Positions 10,385-59,761 of a stretch of 64,000 nt of DNA are shown here, in pieces. Source of the stretch: Escherichia coli (GTDB lineage: Bacteria > Pseudomonadota > Gammaproteobacteria > Enterobacterales > Enterobacteriaceae); NCBI RefSeq assembly GCF_024298765.1, contig NZ_CP101210.1, one strand, 5' to 3'. The notes under the pieces were generated by a model, which was given only the letters and a program-made list of their open reading frames with translations, was not told the origin of the DNA and did not search any database. Numbering within the stretch: position 1 is the stretch's first letter; each line of letters opens with the position of its first letter. The position numbers and the translations under genes were made by a program.

Positions 10385-10461
10385 TACTGCTCCTGAACGG
10401 TTTACAGGAGTAAGTGTAGACGTTGGGAAATGAAATTTGTGAAGTTAATCCTGTTGTAGCA

Positions 10462-11439
10462 GGGCAAGATTACGAAAGCCCGCTCCCCGTAAGGACTGAC
10501 GCCAGGTAGTTTCTGTCCATAGCTGCCCTTTCTATTCAAACGTGAAATCAATAAGTTCATCAGGGACATCACAAACAATATGAAGACGGGTTTCTTCTCT
10601 GCCGTGACTCTTTTCACTAATTGAGTAACTGTCGTGCTCTGGATTATTTAATTCTTTCAGCGGAAATTTTTCCTCAAAGGCTTTATTAAGCCGCCACCTG
10701 ATTTCCTTTTACAGCGAATAAATAATCACCTCCCTGTTTTTGTATCTTCTCTGCAATATCTTTCTGGCAACTCATCGCATCAGTTGTGATGATTTTTCCT
10801 TTAATATCCAGCATGTTAAGAAGTTCAGGGATAGCTGTAATTTCATTGGATTTCTCATCCGTCCTGATCTGTCCGATGACCAGACTGTGCATTGTTGAGA
10901 ACGCACTAATGACATGAATCGCTCCCCTGCGGCGACTCTTGTCATAAGAATGCCGGAGCGTTTTTCCATCAATTGCAATAACGTCTTTATCATCTGAAGA
11001 ATGGCAGTCACGCATCCAGTTAATAAAGCACTCGTGAAATTTTGAAGGACTGATACAGGATACAACTCTGGCGATGGTATCGTGAACAGGAATACCATTT
11101 TAAAAATCACCATATTGTTTTAAAAAATCGAGATGTGTTTCCCCAAAATCCTCTATATCTTCCCAACCATCTGCACCAGAAATAACGGCACAAATAGTCA
11201 ACAGTAGAATATCCGACAATTTATGTTCCACTTTTCCAGGATTGTCTGTAATCGGGAATAACAGAAATATGTTCCATCAATTTTTTAAGTACCATTTTGT
11301 TCTCCTTAATTATGTAAGGAGTATTTGATCATGTATAAGCAATAAAAAACAGCTTTAGGTAATGAGGAATATCTCAATTTTTAAACATAAAATGCGAATT
11401 GTCTAGTACAAAAAAGCAGCGTTACGTGATCTTTCCCTG
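10462..11439 (-). mobile_element. degenerate ISAs1-family (H-repeat) copy with internal deletion and frameshift
   Basis: Both ends match the ends of the intact copy at 13087..14388 (CAGGGxAAGATTACG... and ...CGTTACGTGATCTTTCCCTG); about 320 bp missing from the 3' part; ORF fragments 10686..11015 and 10772..11113. Confidence 0.7.
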
Positions 11440-11532
11440 AGAGGTACAGGAACTGCGGGAGGAACTTTATCAGGTTAAACAGGGGTTAAGGGGATGCGGA
11501 ACGGGATGTTTAGTGTGCTGAACGAAAGCTAA
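11440..11532 (+). pseudogene. 3' fragment of SymE-family gene, truncated by the ISAs1 copy
   Basis: ...QELREELYQVKQGLRGCGTGCLVC-type tail homologous to the end of 14396..14725; begins exactly at the IS end. Confidence 0.6.
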
Positions 11533-11534
11533 AT

Positions 11535-11572
11535 AATAAAAAAGCCGGGAAGATCTTATCTTTCCCGGCCAT
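11535..11572. terminator. hairpin + T-run between convergent genes
   Basis: aagccgggaagatcttatctttcccggc inverted repeat. Confidence 0.5.
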
Positions 11573-11587
11573 CTTGCCATACATTAA

Positions 11588-12022
11588 TTATTTATGAATA
11601 TAATATAACTGAACATCATATTCATTATCACTTAAAACTATTAGTCGATCGGGAAATGTAAATGCTAATGAAAGATCATATGTTTCATTTATCGAAAACA
11701 AACTCAATATGAAATTTGAAAAATTTTCGACATGAAGAGATATGCAAACATCTCCATTATAGAATATATTGCAAAGAATATCTTTTTTCACATTCAGTGT
11801 ACTTTCAACATCTCTCGCTAGATCATTAATATTTAAAGGTAAATTGAAAACTCTCCTTTCAATAATATTATCGGTTTTATTTATTGCCATTAGCATTTCT
11901 CGATGCCACATGAAGTCATTCTTACGTAAGAATGATACATCAAAGGAAGTGACACCATTTAATTTAGAAGCATAATCTTTTGCTCTAATTAAATTTAATT
12001 TATCTTCAAGGCTAATTTTCAT
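11588..12022 (-). CDS. putative immunity protein of orphan Rhs C-terminal toxin
   Basis: 144 aa ORF starting 11 nt inside the 3' end of the toxin stub; position-based call only. Confidence 0.5.
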   Translation of the reverse strand: MKISLEDKLNLIRAKDYASKLNGVTSFDVSFLRKNDFMWHREMLMAINKTDNIIERRVFNLPLNINDLARDVESTLNVKKDILCNIFYNGDVCISLHVENFSNFILSLFSINETYDLSLAFTFPDRLIVLSDNEYDVQLYYIHK

Positions 12023-12470
12023 AATATATATGATGATCCTTAGTTACAGGGTCATTGATCTTCTGATATCTATCACTTTTGAAATCGTATGTTCTAGGAT
12101 CAGCGCCCGGTTTAGGTTGTCCTGCATGTGCGTGAGGGCCAGGTGCCCTAGGATCTGCCGTGTGCTCGACTACAACTTTCTTACGTCCGTAGGCATCTGT
12201 ATATTCATAATATCGCCCATGAGACCCTAAATCTTCCGAATATTTATAATTTGTTTGTCCCCTTCTTCTAGGATCATTTCCAACGGTCCATTGCCTATTA
12301 GGTTGCTGTGAACGAGGTATGCCCGCAAGATCTTTTGCTTTATTTAGTGCCTGACGACGGTTTCTTAATTCACCACATTTAAGACCAAGCGGATCTATCC
12401 AGCTTACTGGATTAGGCGCGTAAGCATATAAGTTTAGCCCCCCCGCCAGCCCTATCGGGTCGGGTTACGT
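12012..12470 (-). pseudogene. orphan rhs C-terminal stub: last ~25 core codons (..PIGLAGGLNLYAYAPNPVSWIDPLGL) plus ~125-aa toxin tip, no start codon
   Basis: Hand translation of minus strand; in-frame stop immediately upstream of the core remnant; absent from ORF track because it lacks a start. Confidence 0.6.
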
Positions 12471-12634
12471 AAATGTTCCACAGTCCGAGTCGTAGTACCT
12501 CAGAAGGTTGCAGTGCAATCCCGCCTTGCGACATCAAGGCATAGTTTCAGAAAAAGTAAGGAGCAATCACCATACCCCAATTCACTGGGTGCTAAATAAT
12601 ATCTGGTAACATCCCTTACTTCAATTCTATTTCA

Positions 12635-13030
12635 TTACAACTTCTTTACTTTCCATATTCTTTGCGCAGCTAAAAAAGATACTCCTTTGAACCAAGACGC
12701 ACATTCAATAACTTGTTCCCATGAATATATTTTATGTGAGCTAAATTTTATCGATTCATCTTGGTTCATTATCTCAATAAAATAATATCCTTTATTATAA
12801 TCTCTTTTTTCTATTCTATCTTCAGCTCTTGCCGAACGTATAGAAATAACACAATCATCTAATAAACAAAATCTTTTCTTTATAATCGCATCATCTTGGT
12901 TCCATGGATTTGTACTTGCCATTTGTTCTGATTGTTTCAGCTCATTCACTACTGTATACCAAATAGCTTCGGTATCACTTGCCTTTGCATTCTCTCTATC
13001 AGACTCGGATCTAAATATAATTTTGTCCAT
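12635..13030 (-). CDS. putative orphan immunity protein (cognate toxin replaced by ISAs1)
   Basis: 131 aa ORF; about 20 codons of an upstream ORF end in TAA overlapping its ATG (TAAAATG) just before the IS end. Confidence 0.4.
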   Translation of the reverse strand: MDKIIFRSESDRENAKASDTEAIWYTVVNELKQSEQMASTNPWNQDDAIIKKRFCLLDDCVISIRSARAEDRIEKRDYNKGYYFIEIMNQDESIKFSSHKIYSWEQVIECASWFKGVSFLAAQRIWKVKKL

Positions 13031-13086
13031 TTTAATAATCCAAATGTAAATTACTTAAAATACCCTCTGCCTCATTCCAGGCATTG

Positions 13087-14388
13087 ACATGGGAACCCAG
13101 GGAAAGATTACGAAAGCCCGCTCCCAGCAAGGACTGACGCCAGATAGTTTCTGTCCATGGCTGCTTTTCGCATCTTACGTCTTAACCCTGCCTTGAATAC
13201 CTTATCATTCGTCAAAATATTAATAGCGATGTGCCGTATCCCTGAAAATAATTCTGCTGCATTTCCTCTTCTTATTTTGCAGTCGTCTTCATTCATTACC
13301 ACGTCCAGACGCCAGTGCAGCTTATTCTCCACGTGCCAGTGGTTTCGGATTGCTGTGGCGAACTTCTCTGCGGTTAAATCAGCAGAACTGATATAATATC
13401 TGACCGTCATTTCTGGCTCTTTCTTTTGTTCTGCTATTATTGACCGAAAGGAGACTGCCACGCATAATTTCTTCAGACCTTTCCATTCAAACGTGAAATC
13501 AATAAGTTCATCAGGGACATCGCAAACAATATGAAGACGGATTTCTTCTCTGCCGTGACTTTTTTCACTAATTGCGTAACTGTCATGCTCTGGATTATTT
13601 AATTCTTTCAGTGGGAATTTTTCCTCAAAGGCTTTATTAAGCCGCCCCTGATTTCCTTTTACAGCGAATAAATAATCACCGCCCTGTTTTTGTATCTTCT
13701 CTGCGATATCTTTCTGGCACCCCATCGCATCAGTTGTGATAATTTTTCCTTTAATATCCAACATGTTAAGAAGTTCAGGGATAGCTGTGATCTCATTGGA
13801 TTTCTCATCCGTCCTGATCTGTCCGATGACCAGACTGTGCATTGTTGAGAACGCACTAATGACATGAATCGCTCCCCTGCGGCGACTCTTGTCATAAGAA
13901 TGCCGGAGCGTTTTTCCATCAATTGCAATAACGTCTTTATCATCTGAAGAATGGCAGTCACGCATCCAGTTAATAAAGCACTCGTGAAATTTTGCAGGAC
14001 TGATACAGGATACAACTCTGGCAATGGTATCGTGAACAGGAATACCATTTTCAAAATCACCATATTGCTTCAAAAAATCGAGATGTGTTTCCCCAAAATC
14101 CTCTATATCTTCCCAGCCTTCTGCACAAGAAATAACGGCACAAATAGTCAACAGTAGAATATCCGACAATTTATGTTCCACTTTCCAGGCTTGTCTGTAA
14201 TCGGGGATAATAGAAATATGTTCCATCAATTTTTTAAGTTCCATTTTGTTCTCCTTAATTATGTAAGGAGTATTTGACCATGTATACGCAATAAAAAACA
14301 GCTTCAGGTAATGAGGAATATCTCAATTTTTAAACATAAAATGCGAATTATTTAGTACAAAAAAGCAGCGTTACGTGATCTTTCCCTG
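13087..14388 (-). mobile_element. ISAs1-family insertion sequence (H-repeat), apparently intact
   Basis: About 1.3 kb; imperfect terminal inverted repeats; single 378-aa transposase ORF. Confidence 0.8.
13108..14244 (-). CDS. ISAs1-family transposase (H-repeat-associated protein)
   Basis: 378 aa, [32 protein letters not shown]..., matches Rhs-associated H-rpt proteins. Confidence 0.9.
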
Positions 14389-14395
14389 GTTAATC

Positions 14396-14725
14396 ATGGC
14401 TGAACACGATATTACGCCAGAAATCACCATTTCCAAAACACAGCGCCGCTATAAAGTCGGCTATGTCAGAGCCCGCCACATAAACAGCAAAACCTACATG
14501 ACCACGTACTACTCACGACACCCCAGCCTGAACCTCAAGGGCGACTGGCTGAAAGAGGCCGGATTTGATACCGGGCGGGGTGTCACGGTGAAGATTTCGG
14601 AGGGGTGCCTGACCATCATCGCTGACAGTGACGAGGTGCAGGAACTGCGGGAGGAACTTTATCAGGTTAAACAGGTGGTTAAGGGGATGCGGAGCGGGAT
14701 GTTTAGTGTGCTGAACGATAATTAA
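14396..14725 (+). CDS. SymE-family (type I toxin-like, AbrB-fold) protein
   Basis: 109 aa; LKGDWLKEAGFDTGRGVTVKISEGCLTIIA resembles the SymE core [30 protein letters not shown] (from memory); start trimmed from ORF 14375. Confidence 0.7.
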   Translation: MAEHDITPEITISKTQRRYKVGYVRARHINSKTYMTTYYSRHPSLNLKGDWLKEAGFDTGRGVTVKISEGCLTIIADSDEVQELREELYQVKQVVKGMRSGMFSVLNDN

Positions 14726-14727
14726 AT

Positions 14728-14772
14728 AATAAAAAGCCGGGAAGATTTAATTTTCTTTCCGGCTTTGTCTAA
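14728..14772. terminator. bidirectional hairpin terminator
   Basis: aagccgggaagatttaattttctttccggctt between convergent genes. Confidence 0.5.
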
Positions 14773-14776
14773 TTAA

Positions 14777-15145
14777 TTATTCAGGAAATTTTCTATTTTT
14801 ATATGATGACCATAAGTGAGTGATCGACCAAGAGTTTTCCTTTCCGAGTACAAAACTTTTGGAGATTATCTCAATATCATCAGATATACGCGAAGATATT
14901 TCAGAATTATTAATCACCCTGAATGAGTATTTAAATGCCTTTTCTCGCAAGGAATCAATAAACTCAATATCATCATCCTGAAAACTTTCCTTATCTAATG
15001 AATTAAACTCACTCATCCAGCAATCATCAAACTCCGGTTCATCTCTTGAGTCTAATGCACTATCAACATTTAATGATTTAAGAAAATCAAAAAATGACGG
15101 GGTGGATAAACAGTTATCAATTTCAATTAGCTTATTATTAATCAT
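14777..15145 (-). CDS. putative immunity protein of orphan Rhs toxin
   Basis: Acidic ~122 aa protein; ATG overlaps toxin stop in TGATG arrangement. Confidence 0.55.
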   Translation of the reverse strand: MINNKLIEIDNCLSTPSFFDFLKSLNVDSALDSRDEPEFDDCWMSEFNSLDKESFQDDDIEFIDSLREKAFKYSFRVINNSEISSRISDDIEIISKSFVLGKENSWSITHLWSSYKNRKFPE

Positions 15146-15790
15146 CACATTAACCCTTGTCCTTTGAGCCAAACCTCTATTAAATCAACAGCCTTGGATG
15201 GTGTCACATTAGTACCTAGCGTATAAGTTCCATTTGGAGATTTAACATCAACTCTGATGTCATCTAATTTTGAATACGCTTTTCTGTAAGCATCAAATAA
15301 CTCTTTATCCGAACCAAGGAAATCACCTTGTCTTGGACCTATCACATCTCGTTCCGCATGATGTAAACGCCAGTGATTATGTTCTGGATTTTCTCCTCTA
15401 GGGAATAATGTTGGGCGAGTTTTATCAGATCGGGAAACTTCAAACGGACGTCCTTTAGATTTACGAACCGCAGGAACATGATGTCCAGATTCACTCACGC
15501 CCATACACTTCTTCGTTAATCCAAGGGGATCGATCCAGCTTAACGGATTCGGTGCATAAGCATACAGGTTTAACCCGCCTCTTAGCCCTATCGGGTCCGT
15601 TACCATGAACCGCCCGACATCCGGATCATAGTACCTGTGCAGATTGTAATGCAGCCCCGTTTCCCTGTCGAGGTACTGTCCCTGGTAGCGCAGGTTCTGC
15701 TCCACCCCGCCGTGGTCCTTCTCCTGTATCGTGTTACCCCAGACCTGATACCCCGTCTCCCACACGATTTTCCCGTCACTGTCCGTCATC
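15145..15790 (-). pseudogene. orphan rhs C-terminal fragment: ~90 core codons + DPLGL + ~120-aa toxin tip with GHH signature
   Basis: ORF 15145..15825; core part near-identical to main rhs (MTDSDGKIVWETGYQVWGN...DPIGLRGGLNLYAYAPNPLSWIDPLGL); 5' end cut by ISAs1. Confidence 0.65.
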
Positions 15791-15792
15791 TC

Positions 15793-17084
15793 CAGGGCAA
15801 GATTACGAAAGCCCGCACCCCGCAAGGACTGACGCCAGATAGTTTCTGTCCATGGCTGCTTTTCGCATCTTACGTCTTAACCCTGCCTTGAATACCTTAT
15901 CATTCGTCAAAATATTAATAGCGATGTGCCGTATCCCTGAAAATAATTCTGCTGCATTTCCTCTTCTTATTTTGCAGTCGTCTTCATTCATTACCACGTC
16001 CAGACGCCAGTGCAGCTTATTCTCCACGTGCCAGTGATTTCGGATCGCTGTGGCGAACTTTTCTGCGGTTAAATCAGCAGAACTGATATAATATCTGACC
16101 GTCATTTCTGGCTCTTTCTTTTGTTCTGCTATTATGGACCGAAAGGAGACTGCCACGCATAATTTCTTCAGTCCTTTCCATTCAAACGTGAAATCAATAA
16201 GTTCATCAGGGACATCACAAACAATATGAAGACGGGTTTCTTCTCTGCCGTGACTCTTTTCACTAATTGAGTAACTGTCGTGCTCTGGATTATTTAATTC
16301 TTTCAGCGGAAATTTTTCCTCAAAGGCTTTATTAAGCCGCCACCTGATTTCCTTTTACAGCGAATAAATAATCACCTCCCTGTTTTTGTATCTTCTCTGC
16401 AATATCTTTCTGGCAACTCATCGCATCAGTTGTGATGATTTTTCCTTTAATATCCAGCATGTTAAGAAGTTCAGGGATAGCTGTAATTTCATTGGATTTC
16501 TCATCCGTCCTGATCTGTCCGATGACCAGACTGTGCATTGTTGAGAACGCACTAATGACATGAATCGCTCCCCTGCGGCGACTCTTGTCATAAGAATGCC
16601 GGAGCGTTTTTCCATCAATTGCAATAACGTCTTTATCATCTGAAGAATGGCAGTCACGCATCCAGTTAATAAAGCACTCGTGAAATTTTGCAGGACTGAT
16701 ACAGGATACAACTCTGGCAATGGTATCGTGAACAGGAATACCATTTTCAAAATCACCATATTGCTTCAAAAAATCGAGATGTGTTTCCCCAAAATCCTCT
16801 ATATCTTCCCAGCCTTCTGCACCAGAAATAACGGCACAAATAGTCAACAGTAGAATATCCGACAATTTATGTTCCACTTTCCAGGCTTGTCTGTAATCGG
16901 GGACAATAGAAATATGTTCCATCAATTTTTTAAGTTCCATTTTGTTCTCCTTAATTATGTAAGGAGTATTTGATCATGTATAAGCAATAAAAAACAGCTT
17001 TAGGTAATGAGGAATATCTCAAATCTTAAACATAAAATGCCAATTATTTAGTACAAAAAAGTAGCGTTACGTGATCTTTCCCTA
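15793..17084 (-). mobile_element. ISAs1-family copy, transposase frameshifted
   Basis: Same ends as the copy at 13087..14388; ORF split into 16332..16940 and 15803..16156; 1-bp difference (gccgccacctgattt vs gccgcccctgattt). Confidence 0.75.
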
Positions 17085-17947: not shown

Positions 17948-19735
17948 TTATTTACGCCGAGTTATTTTTGCATTATCAGAAAGAACAATATCACCTTTCA
18001 CAGTCAATTCATCTATATGGTATCGAGGGTTTGTTACCCACTCTAATTGCTCGTTAGGTACATCTGTTTCCACATAATCTCTACCTTTCCCACGACCTAT
18101 TTGATATTTCGCCTCTATGTCTACTTGACTGAGTGGTTTTTTATTCGCAGGTTCCAAATATACACGACCGTTATCATGCGCCTTAATTATCCCACTTTCA
18201 GCAATCGCATTTGAACCTTTACGATTAGTATAATGCCGCACACGAGTAGTTCCATTACAGAGCTCTTTTTTTAATCCGAGTGGATCAATATATTTCAGCG
18301 GATTAGGCGCATAAGCATATAAGTTCAACCCACCCGCCAGCCCTATCGGATCCGTTACAATGAACCGCCCGACATCCGGATCATAGTACCTGTGCAGATT
18401 GTAATGCAGCCCTGTTTCCCTGTCGAGGTACTGTCCCTGGTAGCGCAGGTTCTGCTCCACCCTGCCGTGGTCCTTCTCCTGTATCGTGTTACCCCAGACC
18501 TGATACCCCGTCTCCCACACGATTTTCCCGTCACTGTCCGTCATCTCTTCCGGCGCGCCGTTCACATCCGTGTGAAAATACAGTATCCGGTTCGGGCCCT
18601 CTTTGCCCGCCTTATCCACCCGCGCCAGCGGTTCATAACTCCCCGGGTCCCTGTAGATGTACAGGCTGTCTGTTCCCTCCGGCCTGCTCTCCTGCGCCAG
18701 CCGCATTCCGTCCCATAAAAATGCCGTCCGGTTGTACGGTTTACCGTCAGGGCTGATGTGCTGTTTTTCCGTCCGCCTCCCCAGCGCATCGTACACATAC
18801 CGGTACGTTCCCCGCGCTGTCGTCACTTCCACCATCCGGTGTTCCGCATCATAACGGTAACTCTGCGTGCCGCTCCGCCCCTCCTTTTCCACCGCACGGC
18901 CAAATTCGTCGTAACGGTAGTGCACACCACGGTAAGACATCAGCCGGTTGAACGGCACCACGCTGTTTTCTGCCGTGGCCCTTTCCCCCGCGCGCCGCCC
19001 CAGCAGGTTTCCCGCCGCGTCGTACTGCCAGCTCGCCAGATACCCCTCATCCTCCGAGCGGCACGCCGTGATGCGCCCCGTGGGGTCGTAGAAGTAATCC
19101 GTTTCCCCCCGCCGGCTGTGCCGCGTCTTCAGCAGTTCATCCTCGCCACTGTAGCTGTACTGCCGGTCCGTGAACGTCTCCGGTACCACCCCGCGCATCC
19201 CGCTGTATGTCTCCCTGCGCTTCAGCCGCCCGGCGGGGTCGTAAAGCTGCCGCGTGCTCAGTCGCCCCTGACTTCTGAGCACTTCACGGTGCAGGGCGTC
19301 ACGAGTGAACTCGCTGATGACCTCCCGGTCCAGATTTATCTGCTGGAGATGGCCGCTGCCGTAGTACAGATGACGCTGCGTTCTGCCGTCCGGAAAGGTG
19401 GTGGCTGTCCGGTTGCTGAGTTCATCGTACTGATGGGTCAGGACGCCCTGCGCCGTCTCCTCAGTCAGCATCCGCCCCAGTCTGTCGTAACTGAAACGGA
19501 TAATCTCCGGTGCGTCTGTTTCCCCGGCATCCGACCGTCGGCGGCGGATTTCCAGTAACTGGTCTGCCGCATCATGGACGTATTCCGTACGGCTATCGGC
19601 TGTCTCCTTTGCCGTGAGCCGGCCCGCCGCATCACGTGCCAGCCGGTGGCGGATTTCACCGCCCCGGTCCCCGGTGAACACCACTTCCGTGACCGCGTTC
19701 AGCGCGTTGTAGCGGTACGTCTGGCGGCAGCCGTC
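17948..19735 (-). pseudogene. orphan rhs fragment: ~490 core codons + ~105-aa alternative toxin tip, 5'-truncated
   Basis: ORF 17948..19753; homology to main rhs starts at ...CRQTYRYNALNAV; 18392-19735 is near-identical to 20910-22253. Confidence 0.75.
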
Positions 19736-19764
19736 GTGCTGCCAGCGCAGCATCTGCCCAACCG

Positions 19765-19978
19765 CAGCGACACGCCGGTGATCAAAATCAGCGCCAAATG
19801 GCTGAGAGAAGCGGGATTTGAGATCGGCACGGGCGTTACCGTGAAGATCTCGGAAGGCTGCCTGATCCTGCTTGCAGATAACAACGGAGTACAGGAACTG
19901 CGCAGGGAACTTTATCAGGTTAAACAGTCTGTTAAGGGGATGCGGAACGGGATGTTTAGTATGCTGAACGATAATTAA
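19765..19978 (+). pseudogene. SymE-family gene, C-terminal fragment
   Basis: ...IKISAKWLREAGFEIGTGVTVKISEGCLILLADNNGVQELRRELYQVKQSVKGMRNGMFSMLNDN homologous to 14396..14725; N-terminus lost at the orphan rhs junction. Confidence 0.6.
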
Positions 19979-19984
19979 ATAATA

Positions 19985-20020
19985 AAAAGCCGGGAAGATT
20001 TAATTTCTTACCCGGCTTTT
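19985..20020. terminator. bidirectional hairpin terminator
   Basis: aaaagccgggaagatttaatttcttacccggctttt. Confidence 0.5.
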
Positions 20021-20441: not shown

Positions 20442-23400
20442 TTAGTTGTCGTGTGATGAATTGAATGGGAACGATGTACGTACAGAACCGTCGGGTTTTA
20501 CAACAACCCTTGCCATATCTGGAACTACCTCTGTCCCATCAGGTAAATAACCTCGACTTTTTATATTTGTAGGCAATGGCACATCATGCACACCTGGTCC
20601 TTTTTTGGCAACAGAAGCAATAAAATCAGCAGCAGAATTATCATCGAGATATTGTCCAACTTGATGACCTTTATTTCTGGCACGATCAATTAACTGATTT
20701 GGTTTCATTTTCTGTCCGTGTTCAGAAAAGGTGTGACCGTATGTAGGCTTACTTTTTGGATTTCCCCATTTGAAGTCAGATTTAGGACACAATCCAAGTG
20801 GGTCGATCCATGACAGTGGATTAGGTGCATACTGATATAAGTTTAACCCGCCTCTCAGCCCTATCGGGTCCGTTACCATGAACCGCCCGACATCCGGATC
20901 ATAGTACCTGTGCAGATTGTAATGCAGTCCCGTTTCCCTGTCGAGGTACTGTCCCTGGTAGCGCAGGTTCTGCGCCACCCCGCCGTGGTCCTTCTCCTGT
21001 ATCGTGTTACCCCAGACCTGATACCCCGTCTCCCACACGATTTTCCCGTCACTGTCCGTCATCTCTTCCGGCGCGCCGTTCACATCCGTGTGAAAATACA
21101 GTATCCGGTTCGGGCCCTCTTTGCCCGCCTTATCCACCCGCGCCAGCGGTTCATAACTCCCCGGGTCCCTGTAGATGTACAGGCTGTCTGTTCCCTCCGG
21201 CCTGCTCTCCTGCGCCAGCCGCATTCCGTCCCATAAAAATGCCGTCCGGTTGTACGGTTTACCGTCAGGGCTGATGTGCTGTTTTTCCGTCCGCCTCCCC
21301 AGCGCATCGTACACATACCGGTACGTTCCCCGCGCTGTCGTCACTTCCACCATCCGGTGTTCCGCATCATAACGGTAACTCTGCGTGCCGCTCCGCCCCT
21401 CCTTTTCCACCGCACGGCCAAATTCGTCGTAACGGTAGTGCACACCACGGTAAGACATCAGCCGGTTGAACGGCACCACGCTGTTTTCTGCCGTGGCCCT
21501 TTCCCCCGCGCGCCGCCCCAGCAGGTTTCCCGCCGCGTCGTACTGCCAGCTCGCCAGATACCCCTCATCCTCCGAGCGGCACGCCGTGATGCGCCCCGTG
21601 GGGTCGTAGAAGTAATCCGTTTCCCCCCGCCGGCTGTGCCGCGTCTTCAGCAGTTCATCCTCGCCACTGTAGCTGTACTGCCGGTCCGTGAACGTCTCCG
21701 GTACCACCCCGCGCATCCCGCTGTATGTCTCCCTGCGCTTCAGCCGCCCGGCGGGGTCGTAAAGCTGCCGCGTGCTCAGTCGCCCCTGACTTCTGAGCAC
21801 TTCACGGTGCAGGGCGTCACGAGTGAACTCGCTGATGACCTCCCGGTCCAGATTTATCTGCTGGAGATGGCCGCTGCCGTAGTACAGATGACGCTGCGTT
21901 CTGCCGTCCGGAAAGGTGGTGGCTGTCCGGTTGCTGAGTTCATCGTACTGATGGGTCAGGACGCCCTGCGCCGTCTCCTCAGTCAGCATCCGCCCCAGTC
22001 TGTCGTAACTGAAACGGATAATCTCCGGTGCGTCTGTTTCCCCGGCATCCGACCGTCGGCGGCGGATTTCCAGTAACTGGTCTGCCGCATCATGGACGTA
22101 TTCCGTACGGCTATCGGCTGTCTCCTTTGCCGTGAGCCGGCCCGCCGCATCACGTGCCAGCCGGTGGCGGATTTCACCGCCCCGGTCCCCGGTGAACACC
22201 ACTTCCGTGACCGCGTTCAGCGCGTTGTAGCGGTACGTCTGGCGGCAGCCGTCCGGATTTATCTGCTCCGCCAGACGGTCCAGCACGTCATGGCGGAACC
22301 GGTAGCTTTCTCCGTTCTCGTTTGTCAGCGTGACCAGACGCCCGTAAGCATCGTACCCGAACGCCGTCCTGCGCCCCGTCGCGTCTGTCCGGCTGCGCAC
22401 CCGGCCCTGCCCGTCCCGCTGCCAGCGCGTTATCCTCCCCATCGGGCTGGTGTACTTCACCAGCCTGCCCGCCGCGTCCGACTGGTAATTCACCGTGCGG
22501 CCGTCCGCCAGTATCACCTCCGTCAGGTGGCCGCTGTCGTCATACCCGTAGCGCGTGCTGTGGCTCTGCGCGTCTGTCATCCGTATCAGCCGCGTGCGTT
22601 CGTCGTAGAACCAGGCCGTCTGCGAGCCGGAACAGTCCGTGTGCCGCATGAGCTGCCCGTCTTCGTTCCACTGAAGGTATTTATTCCCCCCGCGCGCATC
22701 GGTTATCTGCACCACCTGGCCGTGGCGGTCATACTGATACCGGGTGTTCTGCTGCAGCGGGTCGGTCACCGCAAGAAGATTGCCGCGTTCATCGTACTCA
22801 CAGCACCAGCTGTTCCCCGCCGCGTCCACCTCCGTTTCCGGCTGGTGCCACACCGGGTGCCACTGTGTCTGTGCCACCCGCCCCAGCGGGTCGTGCGTCT
22901 CCGTGATATGCCCCTGCCGGTCATACACATAGCGCCATTTGCCGCCCTGCGCATCGGTCATTCCCAGTAACAGCCGTTCTTCGTCGCTCCAGCGGAACGT
23001 CGTCACCTGCCCGGCTTCGTCCTGGTACGCCGTCACCTGATTCTGCGCGTCCCACTGATGATAACGCGTGCGCCCCAGCCCGTCCGTCACGCACAGCCTG
23101 CGTGACGCCAGGCTCCACGCCAGCCGGTACTGTTCACCGCTGTCCGTGTGGTGCCCCGTCACCCGCCACGCTGCGTCATCCGGGCCTTCATACCAGCTCC
23201 ACTGGTAATAATACCCTTCGCCGCCCGGCTGGCGGTGCAGGGTCATGCAGTGGTTTTCGTCGTAAGCAAACTCGCGCAGCAGGTGTCCCGTGCTGTCGTA
23301 CACGCCGTTCAGGTCGCCGGCCTCGTCATAGCGGTAACGACGCAGCAGTAAAGGAGCCGTCTCAGGGAAATGCTGATAAATCTGTGTCACCCGCCGGGGA

Positions 23401-39990: not shown

Positions 39991-40645
39991 ACCAGCCGCG
40001 CCCTAACAGGCGCACACGATCTGACATTTGCATCCAACTTCGTTACTTACGGCCCGTAAACGGGCTGCCCGGATAGGGAATCGATAACTGCTCTCCCATT
40101 TTATCCTCTTCAAGCTGGTGCTTTATGTAATCCTGTATCTTCGCCGTGTTCTTACCCACCGTATCGACGTAGTACCCTCTGCACCAGAACTCTCTGTTCC
40201 TGTATTTGAATTTCAAATCACCAAACTGCTCGTAAAGCATCAGACTGCTTTTCCCTTTCAGATATCCCATAAAGCCGGATACACTCATTTTGGGCGGGAT
40301 CTCCACAAGCATATGGATATGATCTGCACAGCATTCAGCTTCAAGAATCCGTACGCTTTTCCACTCACACAGCTTTCTCAAAATACTGCCTATTGCTCTA
40401 CGCTTCTCTCTGTAGAACACTTGTCTTCGGTATTTTGGCGCAAAAACTATGTGATATTTACAGTTCCATCGGGTGTGCGCTAAGCTCTTTTCGTTCCCCA
40501 TTGGGACCCCCTTTTGATTTCTTGTTTGACACTTGCAGTTGCCAGACCGCAAGGTGTTTTAACAAATCAAAAGGGGTTTTAATAACTGGCTCAAAGCTGA
40601 AAGCTTTCCGGAACCCCCAGCCTAGCTGGGGGTTTTCTGTGCACA
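39990..40645 (-). mobile_element. IS200-family insertion sequence (ends approximate)
   Basis: Contains IS200 tnpA; upstream perfect hairpin aacccccagcctagctgggggtt typical of the IS200 5' region; ends not determined precisely. Confidence 0.65.
40043..40501 (-). CDS. tnpA: IS200 transposase TnpA (HUH/Y1 family)
   Basis: 152 aa from MGNEKSLAHTRWNCKYHIVFAPKYRR..., HIHMLVEIPP HUH motif and ...YYVDTVG... tyrosine region. Confidence 0.9.
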   Translation of the reverse strand: MGNEKSLAHTRWNCKYHIVFAPKYRRQVFYREKRRAIGSILRKLCEWKSVRILEAECCADHIHMLVEIPPKMSVSGFMGYLKGKSSLMLYEQFGDLKFKYRNREFWCRGYYVDTVGKNTAKIQDYIKHQLEEDKMGEQLSIPYPGSPFTGRK

Positions 40646-59056: not shown

Positions 59057-59133
59057 GGCTACGTAGCTCAGTTGGTTAGAGCACATCACTCATAATGATG
59101 GGGTCACAGGTTCGAATCCCGTCGTAGCCACCA
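59057..59133 (+). tRNA. metT: tRNA-Met (CAU, elongator)
   Basis: ggctacgtagctcagttggttagagc...cca, anticodon loop ctCATaa. Confidence 0.9.
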
Positions 59134-59142
59134 TCTTTTTTT

Positions 59143-59227
59143 GCGGGAGTGGCGAAATTGGTAGACGCACCAGATTTAGGTTCTGGCGCCGCAAGGTGTG
59201 CGAGTTCAAGTCTCGCCTCCCGCACCA
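59143..59227 (+). tRNA. leuW: tRNA-Leu (UAG)
   Basis: 85 nt with long variable arm, anticodon TAG. Confidence 0.85.
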
Positions 59228-59250
59228 TTCACCAGAAAGCGTTGTACGGA

Positions 59251-59325
59251 TGGGGTATCGCCAAGCGGTAAGGCACCGGTTTTTGATACCGGCATTCCCT
59301 GGTTCAAATCCAGGTACCCCAGCCA
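59251..59325 (+). tRNA. glnU: tRNA-Gln (UUG)
   Basis: tggggtatcgccaagcggtaagg..., anticodon TTG. Confidence 0.9.
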
Positions 59326-59359
59326 TCTTCTTCGAGTAAGCGGTTCACCGCCCGGTTAT

Positions 59360-59434
59360 TGGGGTATCGCCAAGCGGTAAGGCACCGGTTTTTGATACCG
59401 GCATTCCCTGGTTCGAATCCAGGTACCCCAGCCA
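59360..59434 (+). tRNA. glnW: tRNA-Gln (UUG)
   Basis: Second copy, one T-arm difference. Confidence 0.9.
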
Positions 59435-59449
59435 TCGAAGAAACAATCT

Positions 59450-59526
59450 GGCTACGTAGCTCAGTTGGTTAGAGCACATCACTCATAATGATGGGGTCAC
59501 AGGTTCGAATCCCGTCGTAGCCACCA
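59450..59526 (+). tRNA. metU: tRNA-Met (CAU, elongator)
   Basis: Same sequence as metT. Confidence 0.9.
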
Positions 59527-59574
59527 AATTCTGAATGTGTCGAATATGTTCGGCAAATTCAAAAACCAATTTGT

Positions 59575-59649
59575 TGGGGTATCGCCAAGCGGTAAGGCAC
59601 CGGATTCTGATTCCGGCATTCCGAGGTTCGAATCCTCGTACCCCAGCCA
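59575..59649 (+). tRNA. glnV: tRNA-Gln (CUG)
   Basis: Anticodon CTG. Confidence 0.9.
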
Positions 59650-59686
59650 CTTTATTCAAGACGCTTACATCGTAAGTGCACCCAGT

Positions 59687-59761
59687 TGGGGTATCGCCAA
59701 GCGGTAAGGCACCGGATTCTGATTCCGGCATTCCGAGGTTCGAATCCTCGTACCCCAGCCA
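59687..59761 (+). tRNA. glnX: tRNA-Gln (CUG)
   Basis: Same sequence as glnV. Confidence 0.9.

Follow-up and report, generated by a model that had tools for sequence, protein, structure and literature searches.

The window analysed in this study, a stretch of 64,000 nucleotides, carries the rhsC-type locus of E. coli, which is flanked by ybfA/kdp and ybgA/phrB, and its sequence is 100% identical in E. coli strain 104 and many further genomes. At this locus, a gene for a full-length PAAR-containing Rhs protein is followed, in the same orientation, by several tip/immunity modules, one of which is the HNH-family cassette that is the subject of the present analysis (Table 1). The label 'fourth orphan', which the first-pass annotation had given to this cassette, is a fair one, since two orphans and the remnant of a third precede the tip. 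The toxin of the third orphan (…GSHVNAWNEAEGILSNLHLDY and a stop codon) has been cut to 21 codons by an ISEc1 end at 13098, and the 131-aa immunity gene that follows it has no family assignment. Strain D6 (L004) and a metagenome contig (L006) encode the third-orphan toxin in complete form; in the latter, the third-orphan and HNH modules occur in the same order as in the window, and about 1 kb more of the core is kept. For the tail of the main Rhs (20442..20800) and that of orphan 2 (…GHHVPAVRK…HNHWRLHH…), no Pfam toxin family was found at the thresholds used (E<0.1, E<0.01). The degenerate ISEc1 copy beyond the cassette is described by PGAP as 'frameshifted; internal stop; incomplete', and a self-blast showed it to be 96-98% identical to the remaining ISEc1 copies. 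In front of the main rhs gene, a DcrB/Eag-like chaperone gene is represented only by a C-terminal fragment (25119..25319, minus strand), and the rhsC locus of the window contains no vgrG; the Rhs encoded by this main gene may be without dedicated loading partners. Elsewhere in the window, and unrelated to the tip, are a cluster of seven tRNA genes (59057..59758, plus strand) and the STnc490 sRNA (40511..40634, minus strand).

Table 1. The fourth orphan cassette, its parts and its neighbours in the window (positions are those of the window).
Feature	Position	Strand	Remarks
Main Rhs, 1552 aa (PAAR, DUF6531, YD repeats)	25100..20442	minus	own immunity gene downstream
Orphan 1, 601 aa, ADP-ribosyltransferase tip, with immunity gene	19753..	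minus	followed by IS debris
Orphan 2, 226 aa, with immunity gene	15825.. (15145..15825)	minus	followed by intact ISEc1
Third-orphan remnant: last 21 toxin codons and intact 131-aa immunity gene	13097..12635	minus	
HNH-family tip/immunity cassette	12464..11588	minus	most distal module, after the 131-aa gene and before the broken ISEc1
Degenerate Rhs core stub, about 27 codons, …LD/RKAGLHCNLLRYYDSDCGTFT and stop	12465..12545	minus	in-frame TGA, TAA 12467..12465, 2-nt insertion
P2 promoter remnant	12507..12537	minus	-35 TTGATG 12537..12532, 19-nt spacer, -10 TGCAAC 12512..12507
Rhs core 3' end, 28 codons, PDPIGLAGGLNLYAYAPNPVSWIDPLGL	12381..12464	minus	includes PxxxxDPxGL self-cleavage motif and CTG 12449
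Toxin domain, 122 codons and TAG	12012..12380	minus	Pfam Tox-HNH-EHHH, PF15657
Immunity gene, 144 codons and TAA	11588..12022	minus	ATG overlaps toxin stop by 11 nt (ATGAAAATTAG)
Intrinsic terminator, GCCGGGAAAGAU…AUCUUCCCGGC and U6	11538..11570	minus	17 nt past immunity stop
SymE-family 3' remnant, frameshifted, …EVQELREELYQVKQ / GMRNGMFSVLNES and stop	11441..11532	plus	convergent; downstream edge of cassette
Degenerate ISEc1 (ISAs1-family, 'H-repeat')	10460..11439	minus	context, outside the cassette

The minus strand contains an open frame of 150 codons (12464..12012), which is composed of 28 codons of the Rhs core end (PDPIGL…DPLGL) and a tail of 122 amino acids. It starts after an in-frame TAA (12467..12465), continues past the core end with KCGELRNRRQALNKAKDLAGIPRSQQP…VVVEHTADPRAPGPHAHAG…DHHIYYEN, and is closed by a TAG at 12014..12012. 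The first-pass annotation had read this frame by hand, and translation recovered exactly the same minus-strand sequence, as well as the overlapping 144-aa ORF, which is real. The tail, which had been put at about 125 aa, measures 122 aa, and the figure of about 25 core codons comes close to the 28 codons of the preserved end but does not include about 27 more degenerate core codons upstream of it. It had also been claimed that the tip has no start codon, and this holds for ATG, GTG and TTG, none of which is found among the 150 codons; the only rare starts in the frame are an ATA at 12455 and a CTG at 12449, the latter being the counterpart of the Salmonella ORF1 start. The frame is missing from the program-made list of open reading frames. 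In RefSeq, PGAP has placed a CDS with an ATA start at 12455..12012 (WP_264123853.1, 'HNH/endonuclease VII fold putative polymorphic toxin').

Residues 1-28 of the frame correspond to positions 48-76 of the 76 positions in the NCBIfam profile TIGR03696 (Rhs-associated core; E=2.4e-8), and this core end also matches the solved Rhs cores 8qjc and 7q97. At the junction between core and tail, PNPVSWIDPLGL is followed by KCGE…, with the PxxxxDPxGL motif directly before the variable tail. The delivery part of an Rhs protein, comprising PAAR and the YD-repeat cage, is absent from the tip, and stop codons are located at 12467..12465 and further upstream. The previous description of the cassette as an orphan Rhs tip with its own immunity ORF is supported by the core profile, the Pfam match of the tail and the existence of full-length Rhs carriers. 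This signal is not a matter of chance, because the match to TIGR03696 is accompanied by a match to PF15657 with an E-value of 9.8e-10 and by an identity of 121/122 residues to the tip of a full-length Rhs.

The match of the tail to PF15657 reached 39.1-39.9 bits (E ~1e-9), as compared to a cut-off of 25, and covered profile positions 2-69 of 69. The residues E59, E72-H73, H83-x-H85 and H116-H117 are intact, and in an alignment of 33 homologues E59, H73, H83, H85 and H117 are invariant, all of which are kept in the tail. The earlier guess of an HNH-like nuclease was therefore right at the level of the family, to which the tail belongs with a score above the cut-off and with all invariant E and H residues present. 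In vitro, plasmid DNA is degraded by TseI of Aeromonas dhakensis, a member of the same Pfam family; activity is abolished in the mutants H1497A and HFH-AAA, and toxicity is lost upon exchange of the equivalent histidines (Pei 2020, PMC7170923). By analogy with this one family member, DNase activity is the best-supported prediction for the tip. Several other relationships were considered and rejected. A weak Pfam match (E=0.044) suggestive of an Ntox47 hybrid toxin vanished once the DPLGL part had been removed, and it was seen in 3 of the 33 homologues. A kinship with the Ntox47 toxin Rhs2, proposed on the basis of similarity by eye, received an hhalign probability of 2%. Lastly, the C-terminal part of the toxin profile (YDFKxxRYxKI…HHIYY) gave a weak match to the influenza PA endonuclease among PDB sequences (E 0.06-0.4), which is probably due to chance.

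The AF2 model of the toxin has a pLDDT of 94.6, and the HNH ββα motif is not recognisable in it. A weak match of this model was to one chain of the CdiA-CT/CdiI complex of E. coli A0 34/86 (PDB 5T86; pair unpublished), and the best match of the immunity protein model was the other chain of the same complex, a likeness between structure models that is weak on the toxin side. Because two independent models pick different chains of one PDB complex, and because the confident toxin model is without the ββα helix, Tox-HNH-EHHH might be a helix-plus-β-sheet (BECR-like) nuclease rather than a His-Me finger, and the toxin and its 144-aa immunity protein might be remote kin of the 5T86 pair and of Salmonella Rhs2/SciX. 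We regard this reading of the models as doubtful.

For the immunity protein, no family or match was found in sequence searches of Pfam, NCBIfam and PDB, and a large protein collection yielded only 13 relatives. One of these is encoded directly after a Tox-HNH-EHHH toxin on a 382-aa DUF8093 protein of Pantoea alhagi, where the same 11-nt overlap is found, and another directly after a Tox-HNH-EHHH toxin on an orphan Rhs of 452 aa encoded by a metagenome contig. The pairing of toxin and immunity gene is kept on other carriers, as would be expected of a cognate pair.

The DNA of the tail was searched in 5426 complete E. coli genomes and was found in 71 of them, with at least 99% identity to the window in 63 of the 71. 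Among these nearly identical carriers, all 35 records listed are annotated with a short CDS, and the CDSs that NCBI annotates for the tips start with CTG or ATA. Eight copies are more divergent and include those of strains Res13-Lact-PER13-34 and VCSW5, in which the tip ends an intact Rhs of 1559 aa with PAAR, DUF6531, YD repeats and Tox-HNH-EHHH that is encoded at the yddH-ansP site. The genes for these 1559-aa proteins sit behind an intact vgrG and a DcrB-like chaperone gene, and the same immunity gene and an undamaged symE lie downstream of them. The tail in the window is identical to the tip of one of these full-length proteins (WP_195714911.1) at 121 of its 122 residues, and the immunity protein differs by 1-2 residues. 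A full-length rhs gene with this tip was thus found in two E. coli strains, which answers the refuting condition named in the first-pass annotation, namely that the tip should have no homologue in any full-length polymorphic toxin, in favour of the orphan reading. The view that the tip exists solely as an orphan, which was in line with 45 homologues of the tail that are all of 214 aa or less, was rejected on the basis of this DNA search; the full-length Rhs proteins were missed in the homologue search because clustering at 90% identity hides them.

Other genomes carry the cassette in broken form or have lost it. ETEC1738, whose copy is another of the eight more divergent ones, has the full-length gene with a nonsense codon, the toxin of NZ_OZ197100 contains two nonsense codons and its cassette lies behind a different gene, and the coding part of the cassette is frameshifted in strain P0012. 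The HNH cassette is absent from D6 (NZ_CP010148), where ISEc1 abuts the core-end codons (L004 6975..7000; …GGGCTGGCGGGTG joined to CAGGGAAAGATCA) and ISEc1 comes directly after GGGCTGGCGGG, behind the 131-aa gene and the stub. In about 50 genomes, the stub and the 131-aa gene are present but the tip is absent.

On the downstream side, the terminator hairpin is predicted to fold with -18.9 kcal/mol (z -3.1). The symE remnant shares 86-88% identity with the 3' flanks of the two other modules (14633..14787 and 19889..20016), and the same degree of likeness (86-88%) applies to the 130-160 nt, consisting of the terminator and the 3' end of symE, that follow each of the three immunity genes at this locus. 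In the window, symE is truncated by an ISEc1 end that abuts it at 11440; an intact symE is located at the same position in L002, L003 and L009. Every tip/immunity module at this locus ends in a convergent SymE-family type I toxin gene, the two further ones being located at 14375..14725 and 19574..19978 on the plus strand. An isrA-type sRNA (Rfam, 117.6 bits) lies antisense to one symE at 14467..14595 on the minus strand, and no Rfam RNA family was found within the tip/immunity cassette. The SymE-RHS neighbourhood was reportedly noted by Kawano in 2007. It seems that symE represents the downstream homology arm of the cassettes.

When the window was compared to the other E. coli copies, the identity amounted to 97.6-98.7% from GACCCGATAGGG (12461) down to 11441, and over the 80 nt preceding 12461 it was only about 68-70%. 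The cassette occurs in three contexts: in the window it follows the 131-aa gene, in NZ_OZ197100 it follows another gene, and in the full-length genes it is fused to a native core. Because near-identical sequence is found in three contexts, with sharp breaks at the DPIGLAGG codons and at symE, the alignments show what is probably the spread of the cassette as a unit of about 1 kb by recombination at these two conserved flanks.

The stub upstream of the break reads …GLHCNLLRYYDSDCGTFT and a stop codon where the resident cores have GLHYNLHRYYDPDVGRFMVT, and its DNA is about 70% identical to theirs. The possibility that it arose by decay of a resident core in place was rejected, the jump in identity being located exactly at GACCCGATAGGG. 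A better-preserved counterpart of the stub in NZ_OZ197100 represents a different core type (DPDCGxFTQ), and the identity of the stub to L006, a related orphan from a metagenome, is as low as 61%.

In Salmonella, transcription from P2, an internal promoter of rhs, starts 89 nt upstream of the PxxxxDPxGL codons, followed by a CTG start (Starsta 2020, PMC7043789, S2 Fig). An alignment with the Salmonella P2A/P2B promoters revealed TCGACA-17-TACAAT in the same columns of the three resident cores, which is a near-consensus sigma-70 promoter inside the YLDRETGLHYN codons. Its minus-strand positions are 20944..20916 in the main gene, approximately 18426..18398 in orphan 1 and 15671..15643 in orphan 2, and in each resident-core region scanned P2 was the sole promoter-like match. 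As the resident cores have P2 where it is located in Salmonella, internal transcription would be possible for their tips, in contrast to the fourth orphan. In the latter, both critical bases of the -10 equivalent (A in position 2, T in position 6) are missing, the -35 equivalent fits at 4/6 positions only, and a promoter scan of 11300..13200 gave nothing at the P2 position, of which the transcription-start equivalent is at about 12500. Likewise, the Shine-Dalgarno equivalent has changed from CAGGAT to CCCGAC. At the sequence level, the features of an internally expressed Rhs-CT (Starsta 2020) are therefore reduced in the fourth orphan to the CTG codon, without an intact P2 or Shine-Dalgarno sequence. 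As judged from these substitutions, P2 is broken in the fourth orphan, and the cassette has its 5' edge in the P2 region, specifically at the -35 element.

Altogether, we consider it very probable that this most distal module of the E. coli rhsC locus represents an orphan rhs-CT/rhsI cassette and is silent. In its full-length form, as judged from the family, the Rhs would be delivered by the T6SS, the tip would be released between DPLGL and K, and, unless bound by the immunity protein, it would kill through DNA degradation. The copy in the window would be without the means to make or deliver the toxin, as there is no cage or PAAR, no ATG, GTG or TTG start, no intact P2 and no Shine-Dalgarno sequence, and stop codons lie upstream. 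The silence of the toxin is what we infer from these features, and the toxin and immunity frames are free of disabling mutations. It should be noted that two observations run counter to silence. The CTG at 12449 is the counterpart of a weak start codon at work in Salmonella orphans, and a trace of product could result from upstream read-through; moreover, PGAP calls the tip a CDS with an ATA start. The sole plausible present function would be that of the immunity gene, provided that read-through transcription arrives there. Its product would guard against E. coli that deploy the same toxin; otherwise, the cassette would be a relic.

It is indeed possible, though on balance we think it is not the case, that the whole cassette, including the immunity gene, is an unexpressed and functionless relic that is too young to have gathered mutations. 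No convincing promoter was found before either gene: the sole minus-strand candidate (12624..12596) scores 9/12 and is followed by a hairpin, and the scan that yielded it found 9 sites where 6.8 were expected. The ATG of the immunity gene is preceded at 14 nt by an AGGA, which is a poorly spaced Shine-Dalgarno sequence. In addition, the losses and disruptions of the cassette in sister lineages would suit a relic, and the identity of at least 99% in most carriers is consistent with recent common descent. However, the immunity ORF is intact in 5/5 copies examined, even beside toxins that bear nonsense codons. Strains that deploy the toxin exist in the species, which makes a benefit of immunity plausible, and read-through could come from the upstream 131-aa ORF or from ISEc1.

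A second alternative is intracellular production of the tip, driven by an internal promoter and a start codon other than ATG, in which case tip and immunity protein would act together in the manner of a type II toxin-antitoxin system, as do the main and orphan Rhs-CTs of Salmonella Typhimurium. The location of the 5' edge of the cassette at the -35 element of P2, the CTG of the Salmonella type at 12449, the intact toxin frame and the CTG- or ATA-started CDSs in the NCBI annotation would all fit this view. The promoter and ribosome-binding elements do not, given the TGCAAC at -10, the 19-nt spacer, the -35 element with only 4/6 matches and the CCCGAC in place of CAGGAT, and the scan that detected P2 in the resident cores failed to detect it in the fourth orphan. 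We therefore judge expression of this kind to be very unlikely. Finally, it is highly improbable that the short ORF is a stand-alone T6SS effector without an Rhs cage, like the 147-aa Rhs-HNHc OD436_002541 of Salmonella Tennessee, for although that Rhs nuclease fragment is of similar size and was reported to cause effector/immunity-dependent killing between strains with T6SS-dependent antibacterial activity, the tip has no canonical start, promoter or Shine-Dalgarno sequence, the PAAR, VgrG-binding and Hcp-loading parts are all absent, the rhsC locus of the window has no vgrG and only a fragment of the DcrB-like gene, and OD436_002541 belongs to another toxin family (WHH/ColE7-like, with a DUF7716 immunity protein).

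A silent orphan could in principle regain activity through exchange with a resident core. In E. coli, perfect identity over at least about 25 bp is required for RecA-dependent exchange to be efficient. The longest exact match between the fourth orphan and any resident core is 15-17 nt, and an alignment of about 140 bp is 71-76% identical; for orphan 1, the homology to the main core extends over 1463 bp at 98.4% identity, and for orphan 2 over 275 bp at 93.8%. The hundreds of bp of near-identical core that mark a recombination-competent orphan are thus not present in the fourth orphan. Given so short an exact match, rescue of this orphan by recombination is unlikely.

The first-pass annotation had proposed that the cassette is decaying, which is true of the cage, the start codon, the 5' stub, P2, the Shine-Dalgarno sequence, symE and the recombination homology, but not of the toxin and immunity frames, which are intact. 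Decay of the coding part was seen in sister strains only, in the form of nonsense mutations (NZ_OZ197100 and ETEC1738), a deletion (D6) and a frameshift (P0012). The toxin and immunity genes are about 1.5% divergent from functional copies, with too few synonymous and non-synonymous changes to be informative, and intact frames would fit purifying selection or recency alike.

The closest known parallel in genetic organization is the orphan of Salmonella Typhimurium LT2 (STM0292 = Rhs2, with the immunity protein SciX), which is likewise a tip with an immunity gene downstream of a full-length PAAR-Rhs gene in the same orientation. Both orphans keep the 3' end of the core with the PxxxxDPxGL motif, have no delivery domain, and contain upstream a region that corresponds to P2. 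However, the LT2 orphan possesses an active P2, a Shine-Dalgarno sequence and the CTG and is expressed, and it recombines by means of 522 bp of core homology at 95% (Koskiniemi 2014, PMC3967940), whereas the fourth orphan has an exact match of 15-17 nt and a mutated P2 and Shine-Dalgarno sequence. The toxins also differ in family, being Ntox47 in the LT2 orphan and PF15657 here. TseI-TsiI resembles the present pair in that a Tox-HNH-EHHH domain with [ED]H and HxH histidines forms the C-terminus of an Rhs, and in the overlap between immunity gene and toxin stop codon. With TseI, for which DNase activity has been shown, the Rhs is complete and secreted, whereas the window contains the tip only, and the two are likened by Pfam family and motifs. 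The closest counterparts in sequence are WP_195714911.1 (Res13-Lact-PER13-34) and WP_223040110.1 (VCSW5), which have the last 28 core residues identical to those in the window, a tail with 121/122 identical residues, the same 11-nt overlap and the same symE downstream, and which represent the deployable form of the toxin at another chromosomal site (yddH-ansP).

The fourth orphan is therefore an ordinary orphan rhs-CT/rhsI module: it is annotated in RefSeq, its toxin family has a characterised member, and the type of locus is known. Orphan rhs tips are a well-described reservoir of toxin/immunity diversity, and the present case has little import beyond correct annotation. The mismatch between the structure model and the 'HNH' label raises a small, checkable question about the classification of a Pfam toxin family. 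Within this one locus, core homology follows a gradient from 1463 bp in orphan 1 over 275 bp in orphan 2 to an exact match of at most 17 bp in the fourth orphan, along which P2 is intact in orphans 1 and 2 and mutated in the fourth. Since the same cassette is also found elsewhere in E. coli on a deployable, VgrG-linked Rhs, the idea that the immunity gene of an orphan may serve as protection is readily testable.
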